13,888 nucleotides of DNA, taken from an uncultured Candidatus Saccharibacteria bacterium. GTDB lineage: Bacteria; Patescibacteriota; Minisyncoccia; Phycocordibacterales; JBBUBG01. Within the stretch, counting starts at the first letter, position 1, and each line of letters begins with the position of its first letter. Shown here one piece after another: positions 1 through 13,888 of the stretch. The notes beneath the pieces were generated by a model. It saw only the letters and a list, made by a program, of their open reading frames with translations, was not told the DNA's origin and ran no database searches. Both the position numbers and the translations under genes were made by a program. The stretch is from the NCBI GenBank assembly GCA_964368365.1, contig CAYJBK010000008.1, positions 1 to 13,888 on the forward strand, read 5' to 3'.

Positions 1-2
1 AC

Positions 3-365
3 AACCTCCTTGAGCATCTGTACTCCCCCCATCCATTACTAATAAAAATCAAACGCTACCTTAAGCCGAATGGAATTGTGTTACTCGGCGTTCCCTGCAT
101 CCCCAAGATTGTCTCGCTTCTCCATATACAGAAGTTTCGAGGCAGCCTTTCGCTTGAACATATAAACTTCTTTACGAAAGATACATTAGTAAAAACCACG
201 GAAAGAGCGGGCTGGGAAGTTAAAACGGCCCGAGGCTTTCGTTTTGAAAACAGCATTCTTGACCATCTCCTTGACCCCATTTATCCGCACTTCTACGTTG
301 TGGCAAGCGAAGATACACAGTTCAGATATTCTGATAAAAGAATGAAGGAGCTCGGCGGCTACTGA
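3..365 (+). CDS. C-terminal fragment of a class I SAM-dependent methyltransferase (5' end lies outside the window)
   Basis: The frame of track ORF 78..365 stays open back to the window edge (…NLLEHLYSPHPLLIKIKRYLKPNGIVLLGVPCIPK…). 'R.LKPNG.v.L' is the conserved post-motif-II segment of Rossmann-fold SAM MTases. Stop TGA at 363-365, overlapping the stop of the convergent gene 359..3031 by 7 nt. Confidence 0.5.
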   Translation, partial: NLLEHLYSPHPLLIKIKRYLKPNGIVLLGVPCIPKIVSLLHIQKFRGSLSLEHINFFTKDTLVKTTERAGWEVKTARGFRFENSILDHLLDPIYPHFYVVASEDTQFRYSDKRMKELGGY

Positions 366-3031
366 GCAGTAAGTACAGCCTGGCTTCTGCCAACTTCCTC
401 TGGTCCCCGGTGGCAGTACACCAGCTCAAACTGCTGACCACGAGTCGAAGAAATGGAAACCTGGACTATGCCGTGCTGGCGTCCGTTTACGAAAAACCAT
501 GGATATGGTTCCGACCACGCCTGTCCTTTGGGTACGAGCGCAATCCAATCCCCGTCTTTCACTACACCATCCTGTGCCCACCACATAAGGTTTATAGCCT
601 CCTGTGTCTGGCTAGAGAGAAAAGTACGCCCAGGAGACAACGCCACACTACCGGAAAATGGGGCAACGTGAACTGACGCAAGTCGTCCCGCTTCGTTCTG
701 GGTGTCGTTTCTGTAATACACAAGATCGTACGTACCGGGAATTGCGGGAACCGGAAGCTCTCGTGATCCGCTCTTCGCACCACCGGTATATCCCCAACCA
801 TATCCCTGAGTCCAGTCCTCACCCTGCGGTACAAAAGCCACCCAGTCCTTGGGTGTGGTCTCGATAGGTGTCGACCAGGACACCGCAACAGTTGAAGCTG
901 CGGAAAGCGAGAGAGACGGGAGAGAAACCGTCGTGACCCCCTGAAGCAGAGGAGTAACGGTAATCTTAAGAGACGCAGCGTAGCTCTCTCCACCACTTCC
1001 CGTACATCGGGCAGTAAACGACGTATCCTGCGTGAGGATACCGGTCCATCCTGACCACGTGGGAACCTGGGTTTGCTGACCCGCGCCATACGCACCGCCC
1101 GCAATCGTACAGAATGCAACACCCGGCGCGCTGAGCGAAAGCGTTGAGAACTCTCCGGAAGAAATAGTAGAAGGACTCGCAGAAAGCGTTATGACGCCAG
1201 ACGTACTCGTAAAGGTAGAAGGAGTAGCCGGGGCGAGAGTAGAGGCCGGAGCACTCACTGACCCAGTAGTAGGCACAGTCGTTGCTGGGGGCACCACAGG
1301 TGTTGCTGCCGATGTCGTTGTACTCTGTTGAATACTGCTCCTTCCTGATGCACTCGAGCACGTGCCGCTGTCTCGTAACGGAATACAGAAGGAGCCCGCA
1401 TACCACGAAGCGTTGGAGTCATCCAGGCCCGCATAGTATCCGCGGAGAACGTCTGGCGTGTATCCGAGGGGCGAGGACCACGGTTTTATAAGCGTCGGAT
1501 ATGCGAGCTGTGTGGTATCAGTCACGAGACGAGACAGTGCGAGCGACCGCTTGTCCCACGTAATGCCATCATCGTCACTGGAAAAGATAACCAGCTTTTT
1601 CTTATGAGCTCCCAGGACTCGGAGAACGTTGTCGCTGTCTATCTGAAGCTGCGGATAGCTCCCCAAGCAGCCCAGCGAAAGACGGGTGCTCGTAAAAATT
1701 CCGTCGAGCCCCTCCTTCATAAGATAGTTGCAGTCGTTACCGACACTCGGGCTCTTATGATAGAGGGCGTAAAGTCTCCCCTGCTGGTTAAACGACATAT
1801 CCGATCCGAAAATAAAGGAGCTTACTCCGTCTGCAGCCGGAACCGTATCCGAAAAAACTTTCTGAAATGCACCACCGGAATATCGGTAGACCGCAATGCC
1901 TGTATATTCCGCAGAACTTTTCCAGTCGCGCCGGAGCTCGTTCACCGCCACGTAGGTGGTGCCGTTCGGAGAAATAGCAAACTGCAAATACGCAAGCTTG
2001 GATGTTGTATCAAGCTTGGGAACGAAATCAAACCGGGGCGCCGAGACACCAAGCGAGAATACATGATTATTAAAATCGGCATTGGTAGCCAGGGACCCAA
2101 GCACAGTGCCTGATGCAGGATTTACGGCAATGTTCATATACCCATACGACTCTTGAACCCACTCATTGCTGTTGAGGAATGAGTGTACGAAGTCAACGGA
2201 TCCATCCGAATTCCGTCCGTTGAATACCAGGTGGTAGTACCGGGTATTATCTTGCGCCGTGACGCCACCCCCCGAACACTCATGATTCTGCGGCATACAA
2301 TCAAAAACAATGTGTACATCCCCTCGCGTATCCATCACGATCCCCGGAAGCTGATGCAGGTAGTTAAAAAATCGTCCGGTGAAAACCCAGGAAGATTCTC
2401 CCGTGCGTTTTTTATACACCCATGCGACGCGGTTGTTTACATCGGCCTGAAAACGAGAAAAAACCGCGTACGACCACACAGGACCCACAACCATCTTTGG
2501 CAGGTGTGCATTCCACGTTGACGGTGCGGTAATACTGCGCTCCGCGTCAATCGTAATAATGTCGTCGACTATGGAAAATGCTTGACCAGACTCCGCAGCC
2601 GTCACAACTGGCTGCTGGAAATCCAGAAAAGAAACGAGGGCAGGCTCGTCTCCGTCTGCAGAAGAAGACGCCTCGCCCTCTGCCGTTTCCCGCGCTTCGT
2701 TAAATTCATTTGTCCGCTCACGAGTTCGGGTGTCAAACTCCCCGGTCTCAGCGATACCAAAAAACCGCTGAAGACTTTTTACCGCTTTCGTGGTACGTGA
2801 AAAGTAGTTACCGGTAATGGGTCCGCTGTAGAGCTTTTCATCAGTGAGATATCTTTGCAGTTTCGTAACGTCGGTGCTGTTTTCCAGCCCGTATCTCAAA
2901 TTGCGCGCGAAAGAAACAAAGGCGAGCGAGTATTCTGACGTGGTCTCCACATACCGGGCAAGGCCCACGGGTGCAAAGAGTAGGCCCAGAAGAAAGCTGA
3001 GGGCGAGAAGCTTTCGTTTGGCATCATTCAT
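359..3031 (-). CDS. Large secreted multidomain surface protein: signal peptide, peptidoglycan-binding (PG_binding_1-like) domain, acidic linker, BNR/Asp-box-containing beta-propeller-like region, Ser/Thr/Pro-rich linker and three C-terminal ~95-aa beta-domain repeats
   Basis: 890-aa ORF. N-terminus MNDAKRKLLALSFLLGLLFAPVGLARY is a signal peptide. Residues ~45-100 (VTKLQRYLTDEKLYSGPITGNYFSRTTKAVKSLQRFFGIAETGEFD) match the PG_binding_1 pattern. There is one canonical Asp-box, SSDDDGITW (S-x-D-x-G-x-T-W), at aa ~484-492. Linker aa ~560-612 is STTTSAATPVVPPATTVPTTGSVSAPASTLAPATPSTFTSTS. C-terminal repeats share DW[VI]A[FL]VP.G..W…Y.W (DWVAFVPQGEDWTQGYGW / DWIALVPKGQAWSEPYPW). Confidence 0.75.
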   Translation of the reverse strand: MNDAKRKLLALSFLLGLLFAPVGLARYVETTSEYSLAFVSFARNLRYGLENSTDVTKLQRYLTDEKLYSGPITGNYFSRTTKAVKSLQRFFGIAETGEFDTRTRERTNEFNEARETAEGEASSSADGDEPALVSFLDFQQPVVTAAESGQAFSIVDDIITIDAERSITAPSTWNAHLPKMVVGPVWSYAVFSRFQADVNNRVAWVYKKRTGESSWVFTGRFFNYLHQLPGIVMDTRGDVHIVFDCMPQNHECSGGGVTAQDNTRYYHLVFNGRNSDGSVDFVHSFLNSNEWVQESYGYMNIAVNPASGTVLGSLATNADFNNHVFSLGVSAPRFDFVPKLDTTSKLAYLQFAISPNGTTYVAVNELRRDWKSSAEYTGIAVYRYSGGAFQKVFSDTVPAADGVSSFIFGSDMSFNQQGRLYALYHKSPSVGNDCNYLMKEGLDGIFTSTRLSLGCLGSYPQLQIDSDNVLRVLGAHKKKLVIFSSDDDGITWDKRSLALSRLVTDTTQLAYPTLIKPWSSPLGYTPDVLRGYYAGLDDSNASWYAGSFCIPLRDSGTCSSASGRSSIQQSTTTSAATPVVPPATTVPTTGSVSAPASTLAPATPSTFTSTSGVITLSASPSTISSGEFSTLSLSAPGVAFCTIAGGAYGAGQQTQVPTWSGWTGILTQDTSFTARCTGSGGESYAASLKITVTPLLQGVTTVSLPSLSLSAASTVAVSWSTPIETTPKDWVAFVPQGEDWTQGYGWGYTGGAKSGSRELPVPAIPGTYDLVYYRNDTQNEAGRLASVHVAPFSGSVALSPGRTFLSSQTQEAINLMWWAQDGVVKDGDWIALVPKGQAWSEPYPWFFVNGRQHGIVQVSISSTRGQQFELVYCHRGPEEVGRSQAVLTAQ

Positions 3032-3185
3032 AGGGTAATGATACCACCGTCAGGTGACCCCGACCTATGAATCGACGGGGATAACTACCTGTCCGCCCGG
3101 AGGGAATCGAGTATCACTTTTATCACGCAGATACGTTAGATATCCACAGTCTTATTAGAACTAGCTATGATATACTTCATTATAT
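3032..3185. promoter_or_regulatory. Divergent intergenic region, expected to carry the promoters for 359..3031 (-) and 3186..3920 (+)
   Basis: AT-rich 3' half (…cttattagaactagctatgatatacttcattatatATG) with several TATA-like hexamers. A short GC hairpin (CCCCGaC…GaCGGGG, ~3058-3085) lies just upstream of the minus-strand start. No exact -35/-10 assignment is possible by eye. Confidence 0.3.
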
Positions 3186-3920
3186 ATGGCCACTAGTTCA
3201 ATAAGTATTTCTCACAGGCACTGGTCTTTAAAAGAGAAGGCCCGTGCGCTCCGTGCTGAAGGAAAAAGTTTCTCGGAAATCATGCGCGAGGTCCCGGTAG
3301 CAAAATCTACGATAAGTCTATGGTGCAAAAATATTAGCCTTACCGAAGATCAGAGATCGCGCCTCGCATCAAAAAAGAAAGGTAACTACATGAATGGTAT
3401 TCGAGCCATTCAAACAATGTTCTGGGGCAAGCAGTGCGATGCGTTTCAAGCAGGTCAGGAAAAATATAAACTCTTCAAAAACGACCCGGAATTTGTTGCC
3501 GGCCTCATGCTCTATTGGGCAGAGGGAAGCAAAACCAGCGTTGCGGCGCTTGCAAACTCCGATGCAGATATGATCAAGTTTATTACTAATTGGTTTAAGA
3601 AATTTTTTGGATTACCGACCACTTCTTTCAGTATTCACCTACATATGCATTCCGGTCAAAACGAGCGAGAAATTAAGGAGTACTGGTCCGGCATTACCGC
3701 AATACCCTTGCTCAATTTCCAAAAAAGCTTTATAAAGCCAGAGGGGTCAGGGTACAGAAAAAACTTGCTCTACAAAGGAACCGTGAAAGTTAGCGCACGT
3801 GGAAAAGGAAGCACCTATCTTCTCTACACCATATTTGGTTCAATCGCCCAGTTTCTCGAAGACACAACCAACAAAAAGGCCCGAGTGGAGAGTTGGCTCG
3901 AGAAGTTACAATACGCATAA
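3186..3920 (+). CDS. HTH-domain protein with LAGLIDADG-like (homing-endonuclease-like) C-terminal domain
   Basis: 244-aa ORF. The N-terminus (LKEKARALRAEGKSFSEIMREVPVAKSTISLWCKN) is a resolvase/transposase-type helix-turn-helix. 'PEFVAGLMLYWAEGSKTS…ADMIKFITNWFKKFFGLP' resembles the LAGLIDADG helix (acidic residue, then G-S) followed by the alpha/beta core, as in LAGLIDADG_3-type proteins. Lower GC than the neighbouring genes. Stops 6 nt before tRNA-Lys. Confidence 0.45.
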   Translation: MATSSISISHRHWSLKEKARALRAEGKSFSEIMREVPVAKSTISLWCKNISLTEDQRSRLASKKKGNYMNGIRAIQTMFWGKQCDAFQAGQEKYKLFKNDPEFVAGLMLYWAEGSKTSVAALANSDADMIKFITNWFKKFFGLPTTSFSIHLHMHSGQNEREIKEYWSGITAIPLLNFQKSFIKPEGSGYRKNLLYKGTVKVSARGKGSTYLLYTIFGSIAQFLEDTTNKKARVESWLEKLQYA

Positions 3921-3926
3921 GTATAT

Positions 3927-3999
3927 CCGCCCGTAGCTCAGTTGGTAGAGCAGCTCGCTCTTAACGAGATGGTCGGGGGTTCAATTCCCTCCGGGCGGA
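3927..3999 (+). tRNA. tRNA-Lys (anticodon CTT)
   Basis: Hand-folded cloverleaf. Acceptor CCGCCCG/CGGGCGG (7 bp). T8A9, D-arm GCTC-AGTTGGTA-GAGC. Anticodon stem GCTCG/CGAGA (4 bp plus a 27-43 mismatch), loop CTCTTAA (U33, anticodon CTT, A37). Variable loop TGGTC. T-arm GGGGG-TTCAATT-CCCTC. Discriminator A. CCA not encoded. Near-identical in layout to E. coli tRNA-Lys. Confidence 0.85.
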
Positions 4000-4039
4000 C
4001 AAGATTAGGCAAGGAAACGTGGTATTATAACTACCACTT

Positions 4040-4121
4040 GGGCAGGTGGCGTAACTGGTAGCCGCGTGGGCCTTAGAAGCCCATGCCGAAAGGCGTGGAG
4101 GTTCAAATCCTCTCCTGCCCA
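4040..4121 (+). tRNA. tRNA-Leu (anticodon TAG), class II with long variable arm
   Basis: Acceptor GGGCAGG/CCTGCCC. D-arm GCG-TAACTGGTAGC-CGC. Anticodon stem TGGGC/GCCCA with loop CTTAGAA (anticodon TAG). Long variable arm TGCCGAAAGGCGT (GCC/GGC stem, GAAA loop). T-arm GGAGG-TTCAAAT-CCTCT. Discriminator A. Confidence 0.85.
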
Positions 4122-4184
4122 TAAAGAACTGACAAATTCACAAAATACCCTTATTTTACGAGCCTTATTTGCTCATCCTGGGAC

Positions 4185-4213
4185 TTGACAAATACGGTGT
4201 TTTGATATATAAT
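4185..4213 (+). promoter_or_regulatory. Consensus sigma70-type promoter (TTGACA - 17 nt - TATAAT) for the SPFH module
   Basis: ggacTTGACAaatacggtgttttgataTATAATagc: exact -35 and -10 hexamers with a 17-nt spacer in an AT-rich intergenic region ~160 nt upstream of the ATG at 4374. Confidence 0.6.
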
Positions 4214-4341
4214 AGCAGAGGATACGAAAAGGCAGAATTGTAGCCTTTGGTGAGACCTTTAACACCACCTTAAGTATAGAAATTATGCGCTCGACATGTC
4301 GTCGGGCGTACTCACGTTTCCCGTTCACTGTTCCCCTACCC

Positions 4342-4366
4342 GTCTTGCTTCGGCAAGACAAAGGAG
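4342..4366 (+). promoter_or_regulatory. Leader stem-loop (7-bp stem, UUCG tetraloop) immediately 5' of the Shine-Dalgarno AAGGAG
   Basis: GTCTTGC-TTCG-GCAAGAC at ~4342-4359, followed directly by aAAGGAG (4361-4366) and ATG at 4374. Not followed by a U-run, so it is not a terminator. Likely an mRNA 5' structural or stability element. Confidence 0.4.
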
Positions 4367-4373
4367 ATCTGCA

Positions 4374-5516
4374 ATGTCTACTTTCGCCTGGGTCGGTCTC
4401 GCCTTTCTCGCGTTCAACATCGGACTCATTGTCTTGATGTGGAAGCGACCGGGAACGACCGACCCCTGGTCCGCCGGCGTTGGCCGCTTCCTTTCCCTAA
4501 GGAGCGGATTCTACGCTGGCTATGTGATCAACCTCACACTGCTCCTCCTGGAGTTCATCCTGTGCATGATCTTCCCGACCTCTCATCCGTGGTTCCTCTT
4601 TGCCGGCGTCGCTATCATCTCGATTGCGTACTTCGGACTCTGGGGCATCACAACCATCGAAACGGGCATCGAAGGAGCCCTGGTGTTCTTGTTCGCCTGG
4701 GTCATGGACCCAAGCCCACCACCACCTCCTGCTGCCCAGGTGCTCAAGAGAGGAAAGGGTGTCTACTGGACACTGCCGCCTCCGTTCGGCGGATTCGAAA
4801 CGATTGAGATCCGGGAACGGGTCTCACGGTTCGGATTCGTGGACGAGAAGACAGCCGCAGTCGGGTTTAAGATCTACACCAATGATGGAATCGTCCACCA
4901 GGTGTTCGGGTCCATAACCTGGTTCATCGAGGACATCGCCCATGTGCTGACTCACAGCACGAAGCCGATCCACGAAGTGCTGAAAAACCTGGCACAAGAA
5001 GAGATCAAGCAGGATGCGTCAGGCGTAGCGTCAGATGTGTTCTGCAATCAGATCAATACTGTTGCCAACCAGACGGCGGAGAGAATCAAGGCAGCAATGG
5101 CCGCGGTCGCAGCTGCTCACGGCGTACGTGTCGAACTCGTGCAGATCACGCAAGTCGATCCGCCCAAGTCCGTCGTCGACGCCAAGGCCAAGGTTGCCCA
5201 GGAGAGGGCAGAGAAGGAAGCCGAGGAAATCGAGATCGCGCACGTTACAAAAATGGTTCAAGAGCTTCGTACGAAAAACAAGAAGCTCTCCCACGCCGAC
5301 GCACTCAGAGCTGTCATGGCTGAGCGCGGCAAGCTGGTGTGGAAGTACGACGATTACCCTACCGACTACAGCCTCGACATCAAGGGGCTGCCGGACGGGC
5401 TGACAAGCATTAACGTCGTAGGCGCCCCGGGCACTCGTGGGCCCGGTTCCGGCGGAAAAAAGAAAAACCCGAATAGCGGAGGAGGCAGCAGTGGCAACCC
5501 CGGCAACACCCCCTAG
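4374..5516 (+). CDS. Polytopic membrane protein with C-terminal SPFH/band-7 (HflK/C-, stomatin-, flotillin-like) domain
   Basis: Track ORF 4296..5516. The start is chosen at ATG 4374 (MSTFAWVGL…) because of AAGGAG 8 nt upstream. Three to four predicted TM helices (FAWVGLAFLAFNIGLIVLMW; YAGYVINLTLLLLEFILCMIF; WFLFAGVAIISIAYFGLWGI; GALVFLFAWVM), then PSPPPPPAAQ. The C-terminal segment GVRVELVQITQVDPPKSVVDAKAKVAQERAEKEAEEIEIAHV is the characteristic SPFH 'v.i.dv.pp..v..a...aereaea' helix region. Gly/Ser-rich disordered tail. GC-rich coding sequence. Confidence 0.6.
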   Translation: MSTFAWVGLAFLAFNIGLIVLMWKRPGTTDPWSAGVGRFLSLRSGFYAGYVINLTLLLLEFILCMIFPTSHPWFLFAGVAIISIAYFGLWGITTIETGIEGALVFLFAWVMDPSPPPPPAAQVLKRGKGVYWTLPPPFGGFETIEIRERVSRFGFVDEKTAAVGFKIYTNDGIVHQVFGSITWFIEDIAHVLTHSTKPIHEVLKNLAQEEIKQDASGVASDVFCNQINTVANQTAERIKAAMAAVAAAHGVRVELVQITQVDPPKSVVDAKAKVAQERAEKEAEEIEIAHVTKMVQELRTKNKKLSHADALRAVMAERGKLVWKYDDYPTDYSLDIKGLPDGLTSINVVGAPGTRGPGSGGKKKNPNSGGGSSGNPGNTP

Positions 5517-6105
5517 TGCTCCAGTGGTGCCACCAGTACACACGAGACGCGCCCCTGGGTGTCTCGTGCTCGTAATTGTGGCGCTTGTGTTCGCGCTCGG
5601 GTTCGCGTACTCCCTGTTCTCCCTCTTCTCTTCGAGCAGTGGGGCTACGGTACGCGCGACGTCGGGCTGGAAGATTAAGTACTTCTACATGTACTCGAAA
5701 AAGTACGGGAAGGACCCGGAGCAGGCTCGCCCCACGGCAACGATCACAGACTTCGTCGAAGATCGCGGCACGGGTAGGCTCTCGCTCTCCTACGACGACC
5801 CCGAGGTCGGGCCCGTGACGTTCCAGTCGACCTGGAACCCGGAAAAGAAGGTTCTCGCAGGGCAGGTACCACGAGGCGAGCAGAGTGTCATCAAGTTCCG
5901 CAAGGAGCTGGATGGCTACTATCTCGTCGAGTGGGAGAATGCCGAGGGTCGAGGTACGGTATACCTCACACGAGTTGCTGGTTCACGGCACCTCGAAGGA
6001 TACACGGTCAACAAGAGACCGCTAGACAAAGGTGGTGAGACAATAGAAGAAGACACCTTCATCGATCGGTACGTCATGATCACGGCACCCCCTCCGGGCG
6101 CGTGA
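5437..6105 (+). CDS. Single-pass membrane protein of unknown function, co-transcribed with the SPFH gene (possible SPFH partner)
   Basis: 222-aa ORF. The start is uncertain: ATG 5437 overlaps the upstream gene by 80 nt, and an in-frame GTG at ~5524 lies just after the upstream stop. Pro/Ala-rich N-terminus, one TM helix (CLVLVIVALVFALGFAYSLFSLF), then a ~150-aa soluble domain with no motif I can recognise. Ends 27 nt before a strong terminator hairpin. Confidence 0.55.
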   Translation: MGPVPAEKRKTRIAEEAAVATPATPPSAPVVPPVHTRRAPGCLVLVIVALVFALGFAYSLFSLFSSSSGATVRATSGWKIKYFYMYSKKYGKDPEQARPTATITDFVEDRGTGRLSLSYDDPEVGPVTFQSTWNPEKKVLAGQVPRGEQSVIKFRKELDGYYLVEWENAEGRGTVYLTRVAGSRHLEGYTVNKRPLDKGGETIEEDTFIDRYVMITAPPPGA

Positions 6106-6132
6106 TCATACGCGGCTAATCGGTGAAAAGGC

Positions 6133-6181
6133 AGAGCCCCGCACGTCGTCTCACGACACGTGACGGGGCTCTCGAATTTTT
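6133..6181. terminator. Bidirectional rho-independent terminator between convergent transcription units
   Basis: AGAGCCCCG…(cacgtcgtctcacgacacgtga)…CGGGGCTCT long GC-rich hairpin with an internal GTCGT/ACGAC sub-stem. Followed by TTTTTAT on the plus strand and preceded by GAAAAG (a U-run for the minus-strand transcript). Lies between the stop at 6105 (+) and the stop at 6200 (-). Confidence 0.6.
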
Positions 6182-6199
6182 ATACGATATTTTCTCTCC

Positions 6200-6490
6200 C
6201 TACTGCAATGACTTTATCGACTCGATGATGAAGTTGGTGAGACCGAAAGCAGATACCATAATGAAGAGTCCTATAAGACCGTAGATGATATGCTGCTTCC
6301 CAACATCTCGAGTCTTGTCGTCTGCTTGAATAAACTGAATCACTCCCCAGAGAAAGTAGAGGAACGCGACCCCAAAGAGAAGTCCGATGATGGGATTCAC
6401 CACATTCACCTTAATCCTGTCGAGGAGAGGCAGAGTTGACTCTCCTGCCGCGTACGCCTCCGTTGCAAGCAGTGACAAGATCCCGTTCAT
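6200..6490 (-). CDS. Small membrane protein, paralog 1 of a tandem family with a two-helix hairpin core (TrbC/VirB2-like pilin architecture)
   Basis: 96 aa. Core PIIGLLFGVAFLYFLWGVIQFIQADDKTRDVGKQHIIYGLIGLFIMVSAFGL aligns with the four upstream paralogs (hydrophobic helix, short charged loop, hydrophobic helix). The N-terminus is only weakly signal-like (no basic residues). Starts 9 nt after the paralog 2 stop. Confidence 0.65.
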   Translation of the reverse strand: MNGILSLLATEAYAAGESTLPLLDRIKVNVVNPIIGLLFGVAFLYFLWGVIQFIQADDKTRDVGKQHIIYGLIGLFIMVSAFGLTNFIIESIKSLQ

Positions 6491-6499
6491 CCAGAAAAA

Positions 6500-6946
6500 C
6501 TAGTTCCCAAATGCACCACTCCCACGAGGGTTGTTGCCTGGTATAAGACGAGGGTTCTGCTGTTGGATAGCTTTCGGTATGATCGATTCAACATTTCCAA
6601 TGCTATCCTGTCCAACCCCGAACGTGTTTCCAATTACACGAACAAGACCCCACACGGACACCATCACAAAAAGTGCGATAATACCCTGGATCATGCGCTC
6701 GCGTCCCTCTGTGCGAGCCTCCGTATCCTTTGCCTTAAATATGTATTCTGCCAAGCCATAGAAGAAGTATAGGAGAGCGAGGACAAGAAGAATCGGGATA
6801 CCCAGATCCATCAAATTCTTAATCGTAAGAACAATCGTTGTGACTGTTGTATTCTGAGAAGTACCTTGTGCAAACGCTGCGAGCGGGAGTGCGAGAGCAG
6901 CTGCTCCCACAATCGACGCACGAACTGTTCTGAGAACCTTTTTCAT
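6500..6946 (-). CDS. Secreted small membrane protein, paralog 2 (TrbC/VirB2-like pilin architecture)
   Basis: 148 aa. Signal peptide MKKVLRTVRASIVGAAALALPLAAFA|QG (AxA site). Core LLVLALLYFFYGLAEYIFKAKDTEARTEGRERMIQGIIALFVMVSVWGLVRVIGNTF. Gly/Pro/Asn-rich C-terminal tail. A ~90-nt AT-rich spacer upstream may carry an internal promoter. Confidence 0.7.
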   Translation of the reverse strand: MKKVLRTVRASIVGAAALALPLAAFAQGTSQNTTVTTIVLTIKNLMDLGIPILLVLALLYFFYGLAEYIFKAKDTEARTEGRERMIQGIIALFVMVSVWGLVRVIGNTFGVGQDSIGNVESIIPKAIQQQNPRLIPGNNPRGSGAFGN

Positions 6947-7036
6947 GATCGTAGCTTTTTATATTAAAAACTTATTTTTTTATAGTGACCTTATTCTACC
7001 CCCTAGCACACTACCTGTCTACGAGTTATCCACCAA

Positions 7037-7420
7037 CTACCGAAGCTTTGGGTACGCAGGGAGCACAACATCTGTCGAAGGATCTAGCTGGAACGTATTG
7101 GTGAGTACTCCAACGAGGCCCCAAACAGAGAGCATTACAAAAAGACCAACGAGACCGTAGACGATCTTATTTCGCGCCTCGTCACGAGTCTTGTCGTCAG
7201 CTCGGATGAACGTAATCGCGCCGTAGAGAAAGTATATGAGTGCGGCAACAAAGAGAAGGGGCACCACGGACTGAAAGGTACAGAGTAGAAAGTTAACAAG
7301 CGCCGACAAGCTTCTTACGGGCGCACCGCACCCCGACCCCGCGCCTTGGGCAAAAACCCAGAGCGGAGTAGCCGCAAGCAGCAGCGAATAAAAGCCTACT
7401 TGTATGCGTTTTTTCATCAT
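7037..7420 (-). CDS. Secreted small membrane protein, paralog 3 (TrbC/VirB2-like pilin architecture)
   Basis: 127 aa. Signal peptide MMKKRIQVGFYSLLLAATPLWVFA|QG. Cys pair (GCGAP…LLC). Core FVAALIYFLYGAITFIRADDKTRDEARNKIVYGLVGLFVMLSVWGLVGVLTNTF, the closest match to paralogs 1 and 2. Start overlaps the paralog 4 stop (ATGA). Confidence 0.7.
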   Translation of the reverse strand: MMKKRIQVGFYSLLLAATPLWVFAQGAGSGCGAPVRSLSALVNFLLCTFQSVVPLLFVAALIYFLYGAITFIRADDKTRDEARNKIVYGLVGLFVMLSVWGLVGVLTNTFQLDPSTDVVLPAYPKLR

Positions 7421-7848
7421 GATGGTTTTGTAATTGCGTTTATTGTGCCTTGTATTACTTCCGCGAGAACACCGGAACCCAAGAGAACCGCCGCTCCAAT
7501 CACGGTGTATTTGAAAATCTGATGTGCGGAATCAATCGCTTTCTGGTCACCCAGGGCTGTCACATACTTAAAGCCCGCGTAGAGAAATGCGAGCACTATA
7601 ACCACAACTCCAATCTGCATCAAAGCATCTACAATCTTCTTGGGAAGCGACCGGATATCGAGGGAAGATCCGGGACCGTCACAGTTGAGCGGGTCGCACA
7701 GAGTGGGCTGGCCACCTCCCGGGGGCTCGGTACCTCCGGGCTTTTTCGCGCCCTGAGCGAACGAAACGAGTGGCAAAACAAATAACGCAATAATAAAAGT
7801 AAACACTGCCGCCTTCTTTAAATACCCTGGCACTGGAATACTCATCAT
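7417..7848 (-). CDS. Secreted small membrane protein, paralog 4 (TrbC/VirB2-like pilin architecture)
   Basis: 143 aa. Signal peptide MMSIPVPGYLKKAAVFTFIIALFVLPLVSFA|QG. Gly/Pro-rich segment with a Cys pair (LCDPLNCDG). Core VVVIVLAFLYAGFKYVTALGDQKAIDSAHQIFKYTVIGAAVLLGSGVLAEVIQG. Start overlaps the paralog 5 stop (ATGA). Confidence 0.7.
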   Translation of the reverse strand: MMSIPVPGYLKKAAVFTFIIALFVLPLVSFAQGAKKPGGTEPPGGGQPTLCDPLNCDGPGSSLDIRSLPKKIVDALMQIGVVVIVLAFLYAGFKYVTALGDQKAIDSAHQIFKYTVIGAAVLLGSGVLAEVIQGTINAITKPS

Positions 7849-8234
7849 GATCGTATAAATGGATTAAAGCTGTCGTGGACAAAGAAACTAAATATGGTAC
7901 TCACGATAAACCATGCGAGGAAAGCCAGGAAGACCCCTTTTACCGTTGAGGTAACCATGCCGTGGACCTTGGTCGCCTCGCTCTCGTTGCCAAAGGCTAT
8001 CAAGTAGCGAAAGCCGGCAATAGCAAAGGAAATTGTGGCGAGTGGAATAATCAGCCAAAAAAGCGAGAACTTTATGATCCTGTCTGCGAGTACGAGAAAG
8101 TCATTGAACGTGCAGAGTGGCTGACCCGCATTACCACACGGCACAAGTGGCTCCGGTGCGCCATCGGCCGCAAACACTATCATCGGGAGCATGGCGAGAC
8201 CAAGCACAAATCCAAACCTTGGAAGAAGTTTCAT
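7845..8234 (-). CDS. Secreted small membrane protein, paralog 5 (TrbC/VirB2-like pilin architecture)
   Basis: Track ORF 7845..8321, trimmed to the internal ATG at 8234 (MKLLPRFGFVLGLAMLPMIVFA|ADG), which gives a proper signal peptide and removes the overlap with the upstream gene. Cys pair (PCGNAGQPLC). Core LIIPLATISFAIAGFRYLIAFGNESEATKVHGMVTSTVKGVFLAFLAWFIVSTIF. 1-nt gap from the stop of the SBP gene. Confidence 0.65.
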   Translation of the reverse strand: MKLLPRFGFVLGLAMLPMIVFAADGAPEPLVPCGNAGQPLCTFNDFLVLADRIIKFSLFWLIIPLATISFAIAGFRYLIAFGNESEATKVHGMVTSTVKGVFLAFLAWFIVSTIFSFFVHDSFNPFIRS

Positions 8235-8235
8235 A

Positions 8236-9540
8236 CTAATTGCCGAGGAGTGCCCGAATGCGTCGCGATGCACGCAAGACCGCGTCACTCTCTGTCGTCT
8301 TGTTAATGATAACAGACTCAATCATCTCAGCAAAGACGGCATCTGTCTCTTTAGGATCTGGGTCATACCATCCTCTGCTTATAATTGCAGAGCGGTTGAA
8401 GATATCGAGCACAGGATCAGCTTCGGGCAACGAGAGTACGCTCCGCGAAGCAGAGGGCAGGCCCACTGTCTTTGACACAGCAGCACTACTCTCGGGGCTC
8501 GTCAGATCCAGCGCAGCGTTGAAGGCGGTCTCAGGATTCTGCGAGGCGCGAAGCACACCCACACCATACATCTGGGCGAAAGTGACCTTCCTCACCGCCT
8601 TATCTCGCTGAGGCATCTGGGCTACATCAAAGTTGAGATGGGGATTCTTGCGCACAATATCGAAATAGTCGCTCGCACGCCCAAAGTAAACCGCGAGCGT
8701 ACCCGCCTCAAACGCAGCCTTAGAATTTGAGAGTGCACTGTTCCAAGAGTATGAAGTCTTGGAGGGATTCGCAAACTCCGTATAGAACCGAACCGCCGCA
8801 GATGCGCTGGAAGGCACATCGCCGACGCTCTGACCCAGGAGGGATACAATCCTACCCGTACTGTCGAGTCCTGCTATCGAGTCCCCCACCTGCATAATGA
8901 GTGTACTCAGGATATCTTTACTCCACTCTGTATTTCGAACACCTCCCAAAGCTACCGCACTCTGGGTAATGTTGCCGCGCGAATCACGCACCGTAAGCTT
9001 CTCCGGTAAAGCCGGAAACTGCTCCCACACTTTAGGCGGCTCCACAATCCCCGCAGAGGAGAAAAGGTCTCTGTTCCAATACATAATGAGTGGATCGACG
9101 TAGAGCGGCAACGCGGTCATGCCATCGGGGGCCAGATACAGCTCCCCCTCGTCGATGTAAGTATCCTTAAAGGATCGGAGCGGCAACGATTCGTACGGCA
9201 AGGAGTACAGCTTATCGCCTTGGGCAATAAGGAGATCGTGTGGAAAAAGTATCATGTCTGGACCGCGACCCGAGGCGAGTTCTGAGATCAGTGTGCTCTC
9301 GAGGGACTCTGCTGGAATTTCTTCGTAGACAAGAGAATATTCAGCCTCGTGGGTCGCATTAAACTCCACAACAAAAGGACCCATGGAGCTACTCGGCAGC
9401 GAGCCCCATAGTACCACCTCTCCGCCAAACTGCTGTGCGTCTGGACGGCCAGGAAGAGGTATATATCCCGAGAAGGCAAGGACCGCGAGAATCCCGAGAG
9501 CGCCGAAAATAATAAGAAGAAATATTTGAAAAGTACTCAT
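8236..9540 (-). CDS. Membrane-anchored extracellular solute-binding protein homolog (ABC-transporter SBP family 1-like), with no permease or ATPase genes adjacent
   Basis: 434 aa. N-terminal TM anchor (FQIFLLIIFGALGILAVLAF). Segments GEVVLWGSLP…, DMILFPHDLL… and especially LYVDPLIMYWNRDLFSSAGIVEPPKVWEQF match the SBP_bac_1 signature (…lyYNkdlf..aGl.pPkTWdE…). Start is 2 nt after the MTase stop. Stop is 1 nt before paralog 5. Confidence 0.55.
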   Translation of the reverse strand: MSTFQIFLLIIFGALGILAVLAFSGYIPLPGRPDAQQFGGEVVLWGSLPSSSMGPFVVEFNATHEAEYSLVYEEIPAESLESTLISELASGRGPDMILFPHDLLIAQGDKLYSLPYESLPLRSFKDTYIDEGELYLAPDGMTALPLYVDPLIMYWNRDLFSSAGIVEPPKVWEQFPALPEKLTVRDSRGNITQSAVALGGVRNTEWSKDILSTLIMQVGDSIAGLDSTGRIVSLLGQSVGDVPSSASAAVRFYTEFANPSKTSYSWNSALSNSKAAFEAGTLAVYFGRASDYFDIVRKNPHLNFDVAQMPQRDKAVRKVTFAQMYGVGVLRASQNPETAFNAALDLTSPESSAAVSKTVGLPSASRSVLSLPEADPVLDIFNRSAIISRGWYDPDPKETDAVFAEMIESVIINKTTESDAVLRASRRIRALLGN

Positions 9541-9542
9541 GG

Positions 9543-10115
9543 CTATGTCTTCATATAGAGCAGTCCGTAATGGTGCGCACCCGCGAAGAATGCGTCCTTA
9601 TACAAGAAGCCGACCTTGCCGAGAAGCTCTTTGGCTGTGCCTTCTGAGACCACCTGGTCTGGATGTGGCCCCATGCCCGCGAAGGAGGCGGACCAGTCGA
9701 CGACGAGGATCAGAGCACCGGGCTTCAAAACTCTCGCCAGTTCAAGAAGGAAATGCTCCTTATGCTCGGACTGAAAAAGAACATTGGCGAGCACAGCCGC
9801 GTCGAGCGAAGAATCGACAAGCTTCGTACCCCCCAGTGTGTCGAGGTTGCACCACACGACCTCAAGCTGCCCCACCTTTTTAGCTTCCGCCTCTTTCTTG
9901 AGGCGCGAGAGGAGATCCTTCTGAACGTCCAGGGCGTATACGCGGCCAGATGGACCAACGGCCGCGGCCAGCGCAAACGCGTAGGCACCTGTTCCAGTGC
10001 CAAAATCAGCAACATGCATCCCCTCCGTAAGATGCAGGCGCCGAACATTATCCTCCGGATTCGAGAATTCCATGTGCTTTAGTATACCACCTCCAGCCAC
10101 ATCCTCTGTGGACAT
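9543..10115 (-). CDS. Small class I SAM-dependent methyltransferase (first gene of the minus-strand operon)
   Basis: Track ORF 9543..10409, trimmed to ATG 10115 (MSTEDVAGGG…). The longer N-terminal extension runs through the REP palindrome and the start of the divergent gene, and is low-complexity. Motif I VADFGTGTGAYAFALA, acidic post-I ALDVQKD, motif II/III region LKPGALILVVDW. An alternative start at ATG 10073 (MEFSNPEDN…) is possible. Confidence 0.7.
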   Translation of the reverse strand: MSTEDVAGGGILKHMEFSNPEDNVRRLHLTEGMHVADFGTGTGAYAFALAAAVGPSGRVYALDVQKDLLSRLKKEAEAKKVGQLEVVWCNLDTLGGTKLVDSSLDAAVLANVLFQSEHKEHFLLELARVLKPGALILVVDWSASFAGMGPHPDQVVSEGTAKELLGKVGFLYKDAFFAGAHHYGLLYMKT

Positions 10116-10116
10116 C

Positions 10117-10141
10117 CACTTGGGAGCCTGGCTCCCAAGTG
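10117..10141. repeat. REP-like perfect palindrome, copy 1 (CACTTGGGAGCC-T-GGCTCCCAAGTG)
   Basis: 12-bp arms around a single T. Lies in the 39-nt divergent intergenic region between the MTase start (10115) and the RAYT start (10155). Confidence 0.85.
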
Positions 10142-10154
10142 CTATACTCCTGCA

Positions 10155-10796
10155 ATGGGAATGAGAAAAATAGTGCTTGCTGACGACGAGTATTATCACA
10201 TCTATAATCAGGGGGTAGACAAACGCGACGTGTTTTTGGACGAAGAAGACTACAAACGACTCCTGAAAAGCATTCGGGTATTTAATCAAGAAGAGATCAG
10301 TGGAAGTATTCATGAGTTTTCTTTTGGAAGCAAAAAGAAAACTCCTCCGCTCGTAGACATAATCGCCTACTGTCTTAATCCCAATCATTATCATTTTATC
10401 CTTAAACAAAATACGGAGCGGGGCATCGAGAAGTTTATGCAGCGCATCGGCACAGGGTATTCAAACTATTTTAATAAAAAATACCAGAGAAAAGGACCCC
10501 TTTTCCAGGGAAAGTTCAAATCAAAACATGTCGACGGAAACGATTACCTTGTCTACTTGTCCGCCTATGTAAACCTCAACAACGAAATTCATGGACTTGG
10601 GAGCCTGGCTCCCAAGTCCAGTTTCTCTGAATACATTTCTCCTCAGACAAAGGATGCGGTCTGCGCAAAAGAGATTATTTTAGGTCAGTTTAAAAACCAT
10701 GGGGAGTACGCACTGTTTGCGCGAGATTCAATTTTAGAAACCGCACAGCGTCGCAGACAAGACGCATTATTAGATACAATCTTAGGGGATATTTAG
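10155..10796 (+). CDS. HuH Y1 transposase of the IS200/RAYT (REP-associated tyrosine transposase) type
   Basis: 213 aa. HuH motif in LNPNHYHFILK. C-terminal catalytic-Tyr region GNDYLVYLSAYVNLNNEIHG parallels E. coli RayT DYIYINPVKHG (Y-[IV]-N-[PL]-x-x-x-HG). Flanked on both sides by the same palindrome in inverted orientation. Confidence 0.65.
   Translation: MGMRKIVLADDEYYHIYNQGVDKRDVFLDEEDYKRLLKSIRVFNQEEISGSIHEFSFGSKKKTPPLVDIIAYCLNPNHYHFILKQNTERGIEKFMQRIGTGYSNYFNKKYQRKGPLFQGKFKSKHVDGNDYLVYLSAYVNLNNEIHGLGSLAPKSSFSEYISPQTKDAVCAKEIILGQFKNHGEYALFARDSILETAQRRRQDALLDTILGDI
10593..10619. repeat. REP-like perfect palindrome, copy 2 (GGACTTGGGAGCC-T-GGCTCCCAAGTCC), lying in-frame inside the RAYT coding sequence
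   Basis: 13-bp arms, 27 nt in total, equal to exactly nine in-frame codons encoding GLGSLAPKS. It immediately follows the conserved HG of the catalytic region. Confidence 0.85.
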
Positions 10797-10808
10797 CGAC
10801 TTGCTTGA

Positions 10809-10831
10809 ACTTGGGAGCCAGGCTCCCAAGT
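10809..10831. repeat. REP-like perfect palindrome, copy 3 (ACTTGGGAGCC-A-GGCTCCCAAGT), in inverted orientation relative to copy 1
   Basis: 11-bp arms. The central base is A instead of T, so it is the reverse complement of copies 1 and 2. Begins 13 nt after the RAYT stop. Confidence 0.85.
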
Positions 10832-10861
10832 GAGGAGGGGCTGGTGTATACTGGCGCTACG

Positions 10862-11524
10862 ATGCGCTCCGTCGTCTTAGTTCTTACACTTACAGCAATC
10901 GCGCTTCTTATATTTAAAGTAAACTTCATGCACACACCGCAGACATTTATTCCTATCGGCAACTCATATTCTATCGGCGAAGGTGTGAGCGAATCGGAGC
11001 GATGGCCGAATTTGCTTGCGAATCATATGACGCAAGAAGGAAAAGCCACCAAACTTCTCGCGAATCCGGGGCGCACGGGATGGACCACGCGCCAGGCACT
11101 GGAGAATGAACTGCCGCTCGTCGAAAAAGAACGTCCAAGTCTCATCACCATCCTTATTGGCGTGAACGATCTCGTGCAGGGTGTGTCCGTAGAAGAATTT
11201 GAGAGAAATCTCCGCGAGATCCTAGACCGGAGCGAGAAAGCGCTTCAGAAGCCTGGAAAAATAATCTTGATCACGATCCCTGACTTTACACTCACCCCAT
11301 CGGGAAAATCCTTTGGAGACCCGGCAACGATTCAGAAAAAGCTCGCCGAGTTTAATGCCGTGATTAAAAAAGAGGCAGCAGATAAAGGTCTCCCGCTTGC
11401 GGATATATATGAAGTAAGCGTCCAACTCGGGAGCGACTCGGCATACGTAGCCAAAGACGGGCTGCACCCTTCCCCCACTGCGTATATTGAATGGGAAAAG
11501 GAAATCTACTCGGCTATCAAATAG
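10862..11524 (+). CDS. SGNH/GDSL-family hydrolase (lipase/esterase-like), N-terminally membrane-anchored or secreted
   Basis: Track ORF 10805..11524 begins with a TTG inside the palindrome. It is trimmed to ATG 10862 (MRSVVLVLTLTAIALLIF…, a signal/anchor). Block I GNSYSIGEG, block II ANPGRTGW, block III ILIGVNDL (GxND), block V DGLHPS (DxxH). Confidence 0.65.
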   Translation: MRSVVLVLTLTAIALLIFKVNFMHTPQTFIPIGNSYSIGEGVSESERWPNLLANHMTQEGKATKLLANPGRTGWTTRQALENELPLVEKERPSLITILIGVNDLVQGVSVEEFERNLREILDRSEKALQKPGKIILITIPDFTLTPSGKSFGDPATIQKKLAEFNAVIKKEAADKGLPLADIYEVSVQLGSDSAYVAKDGLHPSPTAYIEWEKEIYSAIK

Positions 11525-11533
11525 ATCCGGATA

Positions 11534-13888
11534 CTAGAGACACGTCAAGCTCGCGATCGAATCCCCTTCGCGGAGTTTCATGATGCGCACGCCTTGCGTT
11601 GAACGGCCGAGGGACGGAATGGTCGCGAGGTCTGTGCGGATCACCTGCGCGTTCTTGGAGATCGCCACAAGTTCTACCTCTGTGCTTACGACCTTCCCTA
11701 CGATAACCTTGCCGGTCTTTGGGGTCACGTTTGCCGTCTTGATGCCACTACCGCCGCGCTTCTGAATCTTATACTCTGCGATCTTAGTTTTCTTGCCGTA
11801 TCCGTTGTGACTCATAATGAGAAACTGCGCATCTTTCTCCTCCTTATTCACGATATCTGCTCCCACAAGCGCATCGTTCTTGCCGAGCTTCATGGCACGC
11901 ACACCCATGGCCGTCCGACCCATTTCCCGGATATCAGATTCTTTAAATCGAATAGACTGACCGCCCGCGGTCGCCAAGATCACCGAACCACCCTTCTCGA
12001 CAAAGCGCGCTGCCAAAAGTTCGTCACCGGCATCGAGCGTGATAGCGATAAGTCCGCTGCGGCGCACATCAGTAAAACTCTCCGCTGAAACTTTCTTTGC
12101 GACGCCATTCTTTGTGACCATCAGAAGTGAGAGGCCACTGCCCTTCACCTTCTTGGGCATCGCGAGCACAGAGGTAACCCGCTCGCCTGCGGAAAGCGAA
12201 AGATAGTTCATGATCGACTTACCGCGTGTGGCACGCTTACCCTCAGGCAGCTCAAACATCTTTATCTGATACGCCTTTCCGCGGTCACTGAAGAAGAGCA
12301 CGTCGTTATGCGTATTTGCCGTGAGAAATATAGTAATGAAATCTTCTTCTTTGGTATCGAGATCGATGACACCCACGCCACCACGCTTCTGTGAGCGATA
12401 TTCGGTTGGGTCTGTGCGCTTTACATATCCGCCAGAAGTGAGGACCAAAATACTCTCCTTTTCTGGAATGAGATCCTCTACGTTGATCTCCTTGGCGCCG
12501 GAGCGAACGATCTTTGTGCGGCGATCATCTCCGTATTTCTCCGCAATCTCCTCAGATTCTTTCTTGATCGCCGCGAGCATAAGCTTGGGGTCTCCTAAGA
12601 ATTTCTTGAGGTCTTTGATGAGCGCAAGCTTCTCCTTAAGTTCGTCCTCAACCTTCTGACGCTCAAGACCAGCAAGACGCTGGAGGCGCATTTCAAGGAT
12701 CGCGGTAGCCTGGAGCTCCGAGAGCTTGAACCGCTTCATCAAATTCGCATGCGCCTCCTCAGTCGTCTCTGCCTTTCGGATCACTTTGATCACTTCGTCG
12801 ATATGATCAAGTGCGATCTTCAAACCTTCAAGAATATGTGCGCGCTCCTCTGCCTTACGAAGATCAAACTGTGCCCGGCGCTTCACCACATCTCTCCTGT
12901 GCAGAATAAACTCTTCGAGAACCGACTTCAGCGAGAGTACACGCGGCACGCCGCCCACAAGGGCAAGCATGTTGTAGTTGAAAACGACCTCAAGGTCCGA
13001 ATGCTTATAGAGAAAGTTCAGCGTCTGCTGCGGATGGATCCCCTGCTTGAGATCGATCACAACGCGAATGTCATCCGTGGACTCATCGCGGATATCTTTG
13101 ATACCCTCAAGCTTCTTCTCCTTCACGAGATCCGCGATCTTGATCAAAAGTTCTGACTTGTTCACCTGGTATGGGATAGAGGTGATCACGATCTGGAACA
13201 TGCCCGCCTTGGTTTCCGTGATCTCTGCCTCTCCGCGAGTAAGCACACCACCGCGGCCCGTGCCGTAGGCATGCGCAATATCTTTTTCATTAAAAGCGAG
13301 TCCGCCTGTTGGGAAGTCGGGACCCTTCACGAATTTCAAAAGATCCTCGGTGGTGGCCTTCGGCTCATCGATAAGATGCACCACAGCGCCCATCACCTCA
13401 CGCAGATTGTGTGGGGGGATCTTGGTAGCCATGCCCACAGCAATGCCGAGAGTACCATTCAAAAGTAGGTTTGGAACCGCGGAAGGAAAAACAACAGGCT
13501 CCTTCTTCGTGTTGTCGTAGTTGGGAACAAAGTCTACGGTCTCTTTATCAAGATCGCGGATCAGCTCGTCGGCGATCTTGCTCATCTTTACCTCGGTATA
13601 CCTGTAGGCAGCGGCTGAGTCGCCGTCGATGCTACCAAAATTTCCCTGCCCGATCGCCAAGGGGTACCGCATATAGAATCCCTGCGCCATCTTTACCATG
13701 GCATCGTACACAGAGGTGTCGCCGTGCGGATGCCAGCTACCGAGCACATCACCCACCACAGTTGCAGACTTCTTGAACTTAGCGCTCGAGTTCAAGCCGA
13801 CGTTATTCATCGCATAGAGAATACGGAGGTGCACCGGCTTCAGACCGTCGCGCAAATCCGGCAAAGCGCGAGACACAAAGACAGACAT
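11534..13888 (-). CDS. gyrA: DNA gyrase subunit A (N-terminal ~30 codons lie beyond the right edge of the window)
   Basis: The frame is open to the window edge. [20 protein letters not shown]… and the QRDR/active-site block [41 protein letters not shown] (catalytic Tyr in RYTE) are nearly identical to the canonical GyrA N-terminal domain. The C-terminal beta-pinwheel begins with the GyrA-box-like QKRGGVG, which favours GyrA over ParC. Confidence 0.9.

Follow-up and report, generated by a model that had tools for sequence, protein, structure and literature searches.

Two overlapping genes of raised G+C content, placed directly behind a pair of tRNA genes, raise the question of whether they were imported at that site or belong there, and of what their products do at the membrane. 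The genes lie in a 13,888-nt stretch of contig CAYJBK010000008.1 (positions 1 to 13,888; hereafter the window), and the first of them encodes a protein with an SPFH domain. SPFH scaffolds are found throughout life, stomatin assemblies being 16-mers, and their bacterial partners are nearly always described as NfeD. The reading we favour, with a probability of roughly 0.7, is that the two genes make up an operon resident in the genome of a Paceibacteria-type Patescibacterium, where it descends vertically and is strongly transcribed, and that their products, a stomatin-like SPFH protein and a one-helix partner, would form a membrane ring.

Contig pieces identical to the window are present in two ENA assemblies from Hainich H51 groundwater samples, and the GyrA fragment of the window is 65-74% identical to GyrA of Patescibacteria metagenome-assembled genomes labelled Paceibacteria, Taylorbacteria, Yonathbacteria or Nomurabacteria. 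With GyrA as the anchor, 80 related loci were taken from GTDB species representatives; the informative loci (n=45) are those with a pilin gene array and at least 2 kb of sequence past the array. Motif counts in leaders were made against a background of 2.58 Mb of related sequence. The features of the operon, all on the + strand except the terminator, are:

4185..4213, + strand: sigma-70-type promoter, TTGACA (4185-4190), 17-nt spacer, TATAAT (4208-4213), 12 of 12 consensus positions.
4257..4272, + strand: leader box CTTTAACACCACCTTA, with one difference from the copy in the leader of locus L003 and found nowhere else in the 2.58 Mb.
4286..4310, + strand: leader hairpin 1, a predicted 10-bp RNA stem with two G-U pairs, enclosing the DNA palindrome CGACATGTCG (4292-4301).
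4342..4359, + strand: leader hairpin 2, GUCUUGC-UUCG-GCAAGAC, 7 bp, immediately 5' of the Shine-Dalgarno (SD) sequence.
4360..4366, + strand: SD of gene 1, AAAGGAG, 7 nt 5' of the ATG at 4374; the ENA gene call uses the same ATG.
4374..5516, + strand: gene 1, 380 amino acids (aa), three transmembrane (TM) helices and a short hydrophobic helix, PPPPP, SPFH domain, predicted long helix, Gly-rich basic tail.
5480..5485, + strand: SD of gene 2, AGGAGG, still inside gene 1 at its 3' end; the public gene call likewise starts gene 2 at GTG 5491.
5491..6105, + strand: gene 2, 204 aa, GTG start, Pro-rich N-tail, one TM helix at ~23-47, all-beta domain predicted to be lipocalin-like.
6132..6181, no strand assigned: intrinsic terminator, GC-rich hairpin at ~6132-6173 followed by T5 (6177-6181), serving the convergent SPFH operon and pilin array.

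Much of this layout had been read from the letters of the window in an earlier note, and it stands: the perfect TTGACA-17-TATAAT promoter, the 10-bp palindrome of the leader, the UUCG-capped 7-bp hairpin abutting the SD, and two overlapping or adjacent genes, which overlap by 26 nt with identical coordinates in the public gene calls on the ENA contig.

Gene 1 is indeed the SPFH protein that had been proposed. The Pfam Band_7 profile (PF01145) matches it with 54.1 bits against a cut-off of 23.6 (E = 2.5e-14), residues 127-286 corresponding to profile positions 22-170 of 176; the domain is thus nearly complete, and the view that only its C-terminal helical half is present was mistaken. The membrane anchor is N-terminal to the SPFH domain, with the hydrophobic helices within residues 1-111. 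Three of them are clear (~4-23, 46-66 and 72-92) and a fourth is short (95-111), so that the three to four TM helices expected beside the PPPPP run and the Gly-rich tail were recovered as three plus one. Apart from Pfam, the sole significant match to gene 1 was phrog_200 (1.2e-10), and a BLASTP comparison with the SPFH protein of the closest relative, L008, gave E = 4e-5.

A profile of 25 SPFH proteins (A3), compared with PDB, matched the stomatins best (PH stomatin 5.8e-22; human stomatin 9e-22, aligned over its residues 74-285), for which reason the family is called stomatin-like. Weaker matches were HflK (1.7e-12), QmcA (1e-10), flotillin-2 (1e-5) and prohibitin (4e-4), with major vault protein also distant. 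This closeness to stomatin is valid at the family level only, because gene 1 by itself finds no counterpart in PDB. On sequence grounds gene 1 is read as a very divergent stomatin-like SPFH membrane protein. A low-confidence single-sequence AlphaFold2 model places a helix at residues 265-301, and a hydrophobic-Gly strand recurs close to the C-terminus in the family alignment.

The product of gene 2 is, as had been described, a protein with a single TM helix and a domain of about 150 aa of no assigned family. Searches of Pfam, NCBIfam, PADLOC and PDB matched nothing, and the domain is predicted to be a lipocalin-like up-and-down beta-barrel of at least eight strands. It shares with NfeD its place in one operon with an SPFH gene (the 26-nt overlap, one promoter and one terminator). 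NfeD itself is ruled out as its identity, in agreement with the earlier view that gene 2 is not a recognisable NfeD: neither PF01957 nor an NCBIfam NfeD model matches, there is one TM helix, and the predicted barrel is not the five-stranded OB fold.

An exhaustive phmmer search of gene 2 against 1.84 billion representatives yielded one true homologue (P0003, 207 aa, 43-44% identical), which is the neighbour of a 431-aa protein at L003; the same run also returned P0002, a truncated copy of gene 2 itself. P0004 and P0005 were rejected as repeat-driven chance matches, and the partner encoded at L008 was not accepted as a homologue since the similarity was not significant, though both methods chose the same segment. 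A gene 2 profile scan of GTDB genomes gave no relatives, and a scan of metagenomes recovered the L003 lineage again and nothing else. For gene 1 a word-indexed search of 5.8 billion proteins returned the query alone, at E <= 0.001 and even at E <= 10. The pair was therefore rightly described as uncharacterised.

L002, a replicate assembly of the window region on a contig of ~2x coverage, carries two substitutions in gene 2 that are 13 nt apart, at window positions 5835 (G to T, W115C) and 5848 (A to T, AAG to TAG). The resulting stop truncates the product to 119 aa (P0002); either the sequencing is at fault or the nonsense variant is genuine.

Whether the pair is resident was judged from the surroundings of the operon, which consist of:

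3927..4000, + strand: tRNA-Lys(ctt), found by ARAGORN and by Rfam (67.8 bits), part of a conserved tRNA block outside the operon that flanks the locus in relatives too.
4039..4122, + strand: tRNA-Leu(tag), found by ARAGORN and Rfam, the conserved upstream boundary of the SPFH locus.
6200..8321, - strand: convergent array of five VirB2-like T4SS_pilin genes, four identified by Pfam PF18895 and the fifth taken from a precomputed record.

The two tRNA genes had been placed directly upstream of the pair, and that is where they are. In most related loci the order is gyrA, a methyltransferase, a solute-binding protein, the VirB2-like pilin array, a gap of 0.5-5 kb and the tRNA genes, which follow one another in relatives as tRNA-Leu(tag), tRNA-Lys(ctt), tRNA-Leu(taa) and tRNA-Cys. 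Of the 80 related loci, 54 have the pilin array behind the gene for the solute-binding protein, and tRNA-Leu(tag) is found past the array in 24 of the 45 informative ones as well as upstream of the L003 pair. The five pilin genes of the window are divergent.

The gap typically holds, convergent to the pilins, a gene for a protein of ~330-500 aa followed by one for a small membrane protein. Band_7 was above cut-off in five of the first ten upstream proteins examined (L008, L016, L024, L039, L036) and weak in two more; it was also weak in three of ten further candidates. A local iterative hidden Markov model (HMM) converged on 25 members, all but one at this position, and an SPFH gene is clear at the position in 22 of the 45 informative loci and weakly detectable in 3 more. 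Conservation of the pair at one place in other genomes is thus largely, not universally, borne out. At the SPFH position of L011 (13602-14722, - strand) there are consecutive short open reading frames (ORFs) of 72-115 aa, two with weak matches to the family HMM, which may be a frameshifted or decaying SPFH gene.

The contigs that encode P0003 have the layout of the window: tRNA-Leu(tag), a 431-aa multi-TM protein, the gene 2 homologue and a convergent T4SS_pilin gene whose product is 67% identical to that of the window. The 431-aa protein (L003 381-1676, + strand), with its several TM helices, occupies the SPFH slot beside the only homologue of gene 2 and is either extremely diverged or a replacement.

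Within this conserved frame the SPFH proteins diverge very fast, their median Smith-Waterman score per residue being 0.13, where GyrA reaches 3.57, the methyltransferase 2.27 and the solute-binding protein 1.91. Kinship is still traceable. For the window and L008, GyrA and SPFH single out the same nearest neighbour, as they do for L014/L049, L024/L039, L063/L067, L062/L086 and L029/L042. GyrA identity and SPFH similarity are positively correlated (rho 0.25, equal to the value for the methyltransferase). The picture that these sequences suggest is one of descent in place with very fast divergence, and occasional replacement is possible at the 20 loci without a detectable SPFH gene.

The G+C content of the pair had been said to be clearly raised over its flanks, and the figures agree: 57.7% for gene 1 and 59.3% for gene 2 against 51.5% for the window, and a G+C content at third codon positions (GC3) of 0.72 and 0.69, the highest in the window, where the other genes have 0.46-0.63. 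The GC3 of the syntenic SPFH gene exceeds that of its neighbours in 21 of 25 genomes (mean +0.09), often ranks first to third in its locus, and in some genomes stands out by nearly three standard deviations, e.g. 0.42 versus 0.18 in L067. As the excess is common to the relatives, it is a trait of the locus and not the mark of a recent import. It could stem from codon bias under high expression or from GC-biased gene conversion at a recombination-prone site.

The promoter of the pair is the sole site in the window with no more than one mismatch to the consensus, where chance would give 0.03 such sites. At 18 of 26 loci the syntenic SPFH gene has a promoter close to the consensus (at least 10 of 12 positions) in front of it, and the match is perfect in the window, L008, L042, L067, L029 and L003. 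The leader is 160 nt long and contains the two hairpins and one conserved box. A 16-nt box, CTTTAACAYCACCTTA, and a 10-bp hairpin are common to the window and L003 only, the hairpin of L003 lying at the equivalent place and being perfect, with a sequence different from that of hairpin 1. In a MAFFT alignment the CCTTTAACAYCA box of these two leaders falls together with a TCWTTGA box of other SPFH leaders. The latter is found in 11 of 25 SPFH leaders, ~23-fold enriched, for a pattern picked after inspection of the data.

A longer form, TTCWTTGAMA, stands ~30-50 nt 5' of the start codon in the leaders of L024, L028, L029, L036, L039 and L042 and is almost specific to SPFH leaders (six of nine gene-proximal occurrences in the background). 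It is often within a small inverted repeat, e.g. TTGAAAnTTCAA, and may be an operator or an RNA element. Hairpin 2 has a counterpart in L008, where a GUCUGC-AUAC-GCAGAC hairpin, one base pair shorter, immediately precedes the SD AGGGAGG. Folding of the whole leader is only moderately above that of shuffled sequences (z = -2.05), and SPFH leaders as a group have a slight advantage in folding over control upstream regions (median z -1.14 versus -0.56, p = 0.013). An Rfam scan of the leader gave no match.

At the other end of the operon, the strong bidirectional terminator that had been announced is certainly strong, with a fold energy of -38.8 kcal/mol (z = -5.3) that none of 200 shuffles equalled. 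Its action in both directions is plausible but weaker, since the minus strand offers only four T behind the hairpin (CCTTTTC). To us the raised GC3, the promoters and the leader suggest high expression of the operon and a conserved, uncharacterised 5' element.

A membrane-protein gene lies directly 3' of the SPFH gene in 24 of 25 cases, and the two frequently overlap by 4 nt. A single TM helix in the SPFH protein tends to go with three or four in the partner, and two or three, as in the window, with one. The architecture described as unusual, in which several TM helices precede the SPFH domain and the partner has one, is not unique to the window but recurs in about nine related species, and an HMM of this sub-family found gene 1 of the window as its first new match (E = 5e-6). 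By sequence the partners form at least 14 clusters unrelated to one another; among the ten syntenic ones tested there was no Pfam family and no NfeD match.

If this is put together, gene 1 would be anchored in the membrane by its three N-terminal helices, with the SPFH domain most likely facing the cytoplasm; this side is preferred because in all three types of anchor the N-tails lack positive charge and positive residues come after the last TM helix. If it behaves as stomatin, QmcA and HflK/C do, the protein would assemble through the helix behind the SPFH domain and the short C-terminal strand into a ring or dome enclosing a membrane microdomain. Translation of gene 2 is probably coupled to that of gene 1, since both its start codon (GTG) and its SD fall within the last part of gene 1, and 4-nt overlaps are usual in relatives. 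Gene 2 would then be supplied as a fixed-ratio subunit, most likely as an accessory or client of the ring, in the role that NfeD has elsewhere. The leader probably stabilises the mRNA or tunes its translation.

Several observations weigh against this proposal. With partners in so many unrelated clusters, one conserved function may not apply to all of them. Taken by itself, gene 1 matches nothing among PDB sequences, and ring formation is not backed by a structure, the predicted local distance difference test (pLDDT) score of the single-sequence model being just 47.5. Twenty of the 45 informative loci lack a detectable SPFH gene at the position, and BLASTP, Pfam, PHROGs, hhalign (against A3) and the sub-family HMM all failed to relate the 431-aa protein at L003 to SPFH proteins. 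The topology signals of gene 2 conflict as well: two arginines before the TM helix of the window protein suggest that the barrel is outside, and five K/R after the helix of P0003 that it is inside. Across the partners the positive-inside rule gives mixed signals and no single topology.

The earlier note had seen in the pair an accessory module, possibly for stress or phage defence, gained horizontally at a tRNA integration hotspot. We regard this as distinctly unlikely. Its attraction is obvious, as the pair directly follows two tRNA genes, has the highest GC3 of the window and encodes two proteins without close relatives in public data; in addition, cassette swapping at a fixed site could yield both the 20 of 45 loci without detectable SPFH and the diversity of the partners. 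Acquisition at a hotspot nevertheless fails because the position is largely conserved, with same-position SPFH genes in 22-25 of the 45 relatives. Moreover, SPFH kinship partly tracks that of GyrA, and the orthologous loci have the GC3 excess too. The window, searched for a direct repeat of the tRNA-Leu 3' end with three mismatches allowed, contains no such att-like repeat, and no integrase was found among its ORFs scanned against Pfam. The supposed link to phage responses found no backing in a PADLOC scan, which gave a chance-level JetC match only (E = 0.094, 9.9 bits), or in a tblastn comparison of gene 1 with phage genomes, which gave none. For genome scanning the locus is a caution, in that tRNA adjacency, raised G+C content and orphan sequence mimic an island even though the locus is resident.

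The pilin genes next door suggest another function, in which the pair is an accessory of the VirB2-like array: an SPFH ring would be the platform, and a surface-exposed barrel would take part in the assembly or anchoring of a pilus or host-contact apparatus, with exposure to host and phage driving the extreme divergence. The pair is convergent to the pilins and has the terminator in common with them, the adjacency recurs in all but one of the 25 HMM members, pilin arrays of Patescibacteria are highly variable and tied to the epibiotic lifestyle (bioRxiv 10.1101/2025.01.22.634366), and the N-tails of gene 2 and of several one-TM partners resemble N-in signal anchors. Adjacency is weak evidence, however, because the whole block from gyrA to the tRNA genes is syntenic, and the two units are transcribed separately and convergently. 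The greater positive charge after the TM helix in P0003 and in the L008 partner suggests a cytoplasmic barrel, and SPFH proteins of Agrobacterium are dispensable for localisation and function of its type IV secretion system (T4SS; PMC8656257). We find this role unlikely. A bolder proposal, likewise improbable in our view, is that the slot between pilins and tRNA genes of Paceibacteria holds a dedicated, fast-diversifying cassette of an SPFH protein and a partner, equipped with a conserved leader element, a strong promoter and a GC3 bias of its own, that would serve a host-contact or T4SS-like apparatus as membrane platform or surface-exposed adaptor, with host or phage conflict as the driver; if true, NfeD would be replaced there by a new class of SPFH accessory subunit, made up of the interchangeable partners, the orphan lipocalin-like barrel included. 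At the opposite extreme, gene 2 might be an unrelated small membrane protein that merely uses the same transcript and forms no specific complex, in a slot that takes any small membrane ORF. This we hold to be very improbable. It would account for the many partner clusters with one to four TM helices, for a sole gene 2 homologue that adjoins a protein not detectably SPFH and for the nonsense change in the replicate assembly. That variant, however, is on a contig of 2x coverage and may be a sequencing error, whereas 24 of 25 SPFH genes retain a membrane-protein gene 3' with overlaps (4 nt; 26 nt in the window) that point to coupled translation, and gene 2 has the same GC3 excess as gene 1.

Other genes of the window were noted in passing. 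Directly 5' of tRNA-Lys is an ORF of 244 aa (3186-3920, + strand) with a G+C content of 44%, the lowest among the larger genes. It had been called LAGLIDADG-like, for which there was no match; Pfam gave weak helix-turn-helix matches only, and there is no homologue in the 80 related loci. On this side of the tRNA block the relatives have tRNA-Leu(taa) and tRNA-Cys. If anything was inserted here, the candidate is this ORF and not the SPFH pair. An 890-aa protein (359-3031, - strand) has an N-terminal peptidoglycan-binding domain (PF01471) and long Ser/Thr/Pro-rich stretches, and is likewise without homologue in the 80 loci. An ORF with an IS200-like Y1 transposase domain (10155-10796, + strand; PF01797, E = 5e-9; G+C ~42%) overlaps the start of the methyltransferase gene, the public gene call retaining its last 119 aa only. 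It may be a remnant or a REP-associated transposase.

Pilin arrays of Patescibacteria have already been described (bioRxiv 10.1101/2025.01.22.634366), while a literature search pairing SPFH and Patescibacteria found no paper on SPFH proteins in these bacteria, the one match listed being on the evolution of cyanobacterial thylakoids. Here a lineage of Patescibacteria keeps a stomatin-like gene at one fixed place, paired with non-NfeD membrane proteins that vary from species to species. The pair outpaces its neighbours in evolution by an order of magnitude, yet bears signs of high expression. If the complex is real, it would widen the known range of SPFH accessory subunits and offer an entry into the membrane organisation of epibiotic organisms with tiny genomes.

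Among known systems the pair would function much as stomatin/NfeD or FloA/NfeD operons do, and it is neither HflK/C nor a flotillin nor a known defence system. It can be set beside the prokaryotic stomatin operons with NfeD, PH1511/PH1510 of Pyrococcus and QmcA-YbbJ of E. coli, the latter with a 26-mer of QmcA together with YbbJ (Tan et al. 2024, as cited in PMC12624060). Like these it is a two-gene operon, its SPFH domain is anchored in the membrane and is probably followed by a helix and a short C-terminal segment, and the small membrane protein encoded second carries a soluble beta-barrel, in gene 2 a predicted one. The partners differ: NfeD has several TM helices and a five-stranded OB fold, whereas gene 2 is no NfeD, having a single TM helix and a predicted barrel of at least eight strands. 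QmcA and PH1511 have a single anchor where gene 1 has three to four N-terminal helices, and the sequence divergence of gene 1 is extreme. In bacteria NfeD is the usual operon partner of SPFH proteins and binds their coiled-coil region via a cytosolic barrel (PMC11222466). FloA-NfeD of Staphylococcus aureus and Bacillus subtilis resembles the pair in its succession of TM segment, SPFH (PHB) domain, coiled coil (in gene 1 a predicted helix) and low-complexity Gly-rich tail, in the operon with a barrel-bearing membrane protein and in the cytoplasmic SPFH domain of a monoderm cell (PMC11222466), gene 1 having its domain probably on the same side. It differs in that gene 1 has no FloA or flotillin Pfam match and its family profile is far closer to stomatin (1e-21) than to flotillin-2 (1e-5), in the gene order, nfeD coming first in Firmicutes, and in the fold of the partner.

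HflK/HflC, the cage that regulates FtsH, has the SPFH fold in common with gene 1, as reflected in the profile match to HflK (1.7e-12), but is made of two paralogues where the window has one SPFH gene. The HflC model of NCBIfam scores 12.6 bits on gene 1 against a cut-off of 427, no ftsH is present in the window, and the periplasmic placement of HflK/HflC contrasts with the cytoplasmic one proposed for gene 1. A parallel in evolutionary behaviour is given by the SPFH paralogues PaFlo3-9 of Pseudomonas aeruginosa, which are markedly divergent, patchy in distribution, of limited phylogenetic conservation and only in some cases paired with NfeD (PMC13086221). The PaFlo3-9 loci are without conserved context, whereas in the family of the window the context is conserved and the sequences diverge.

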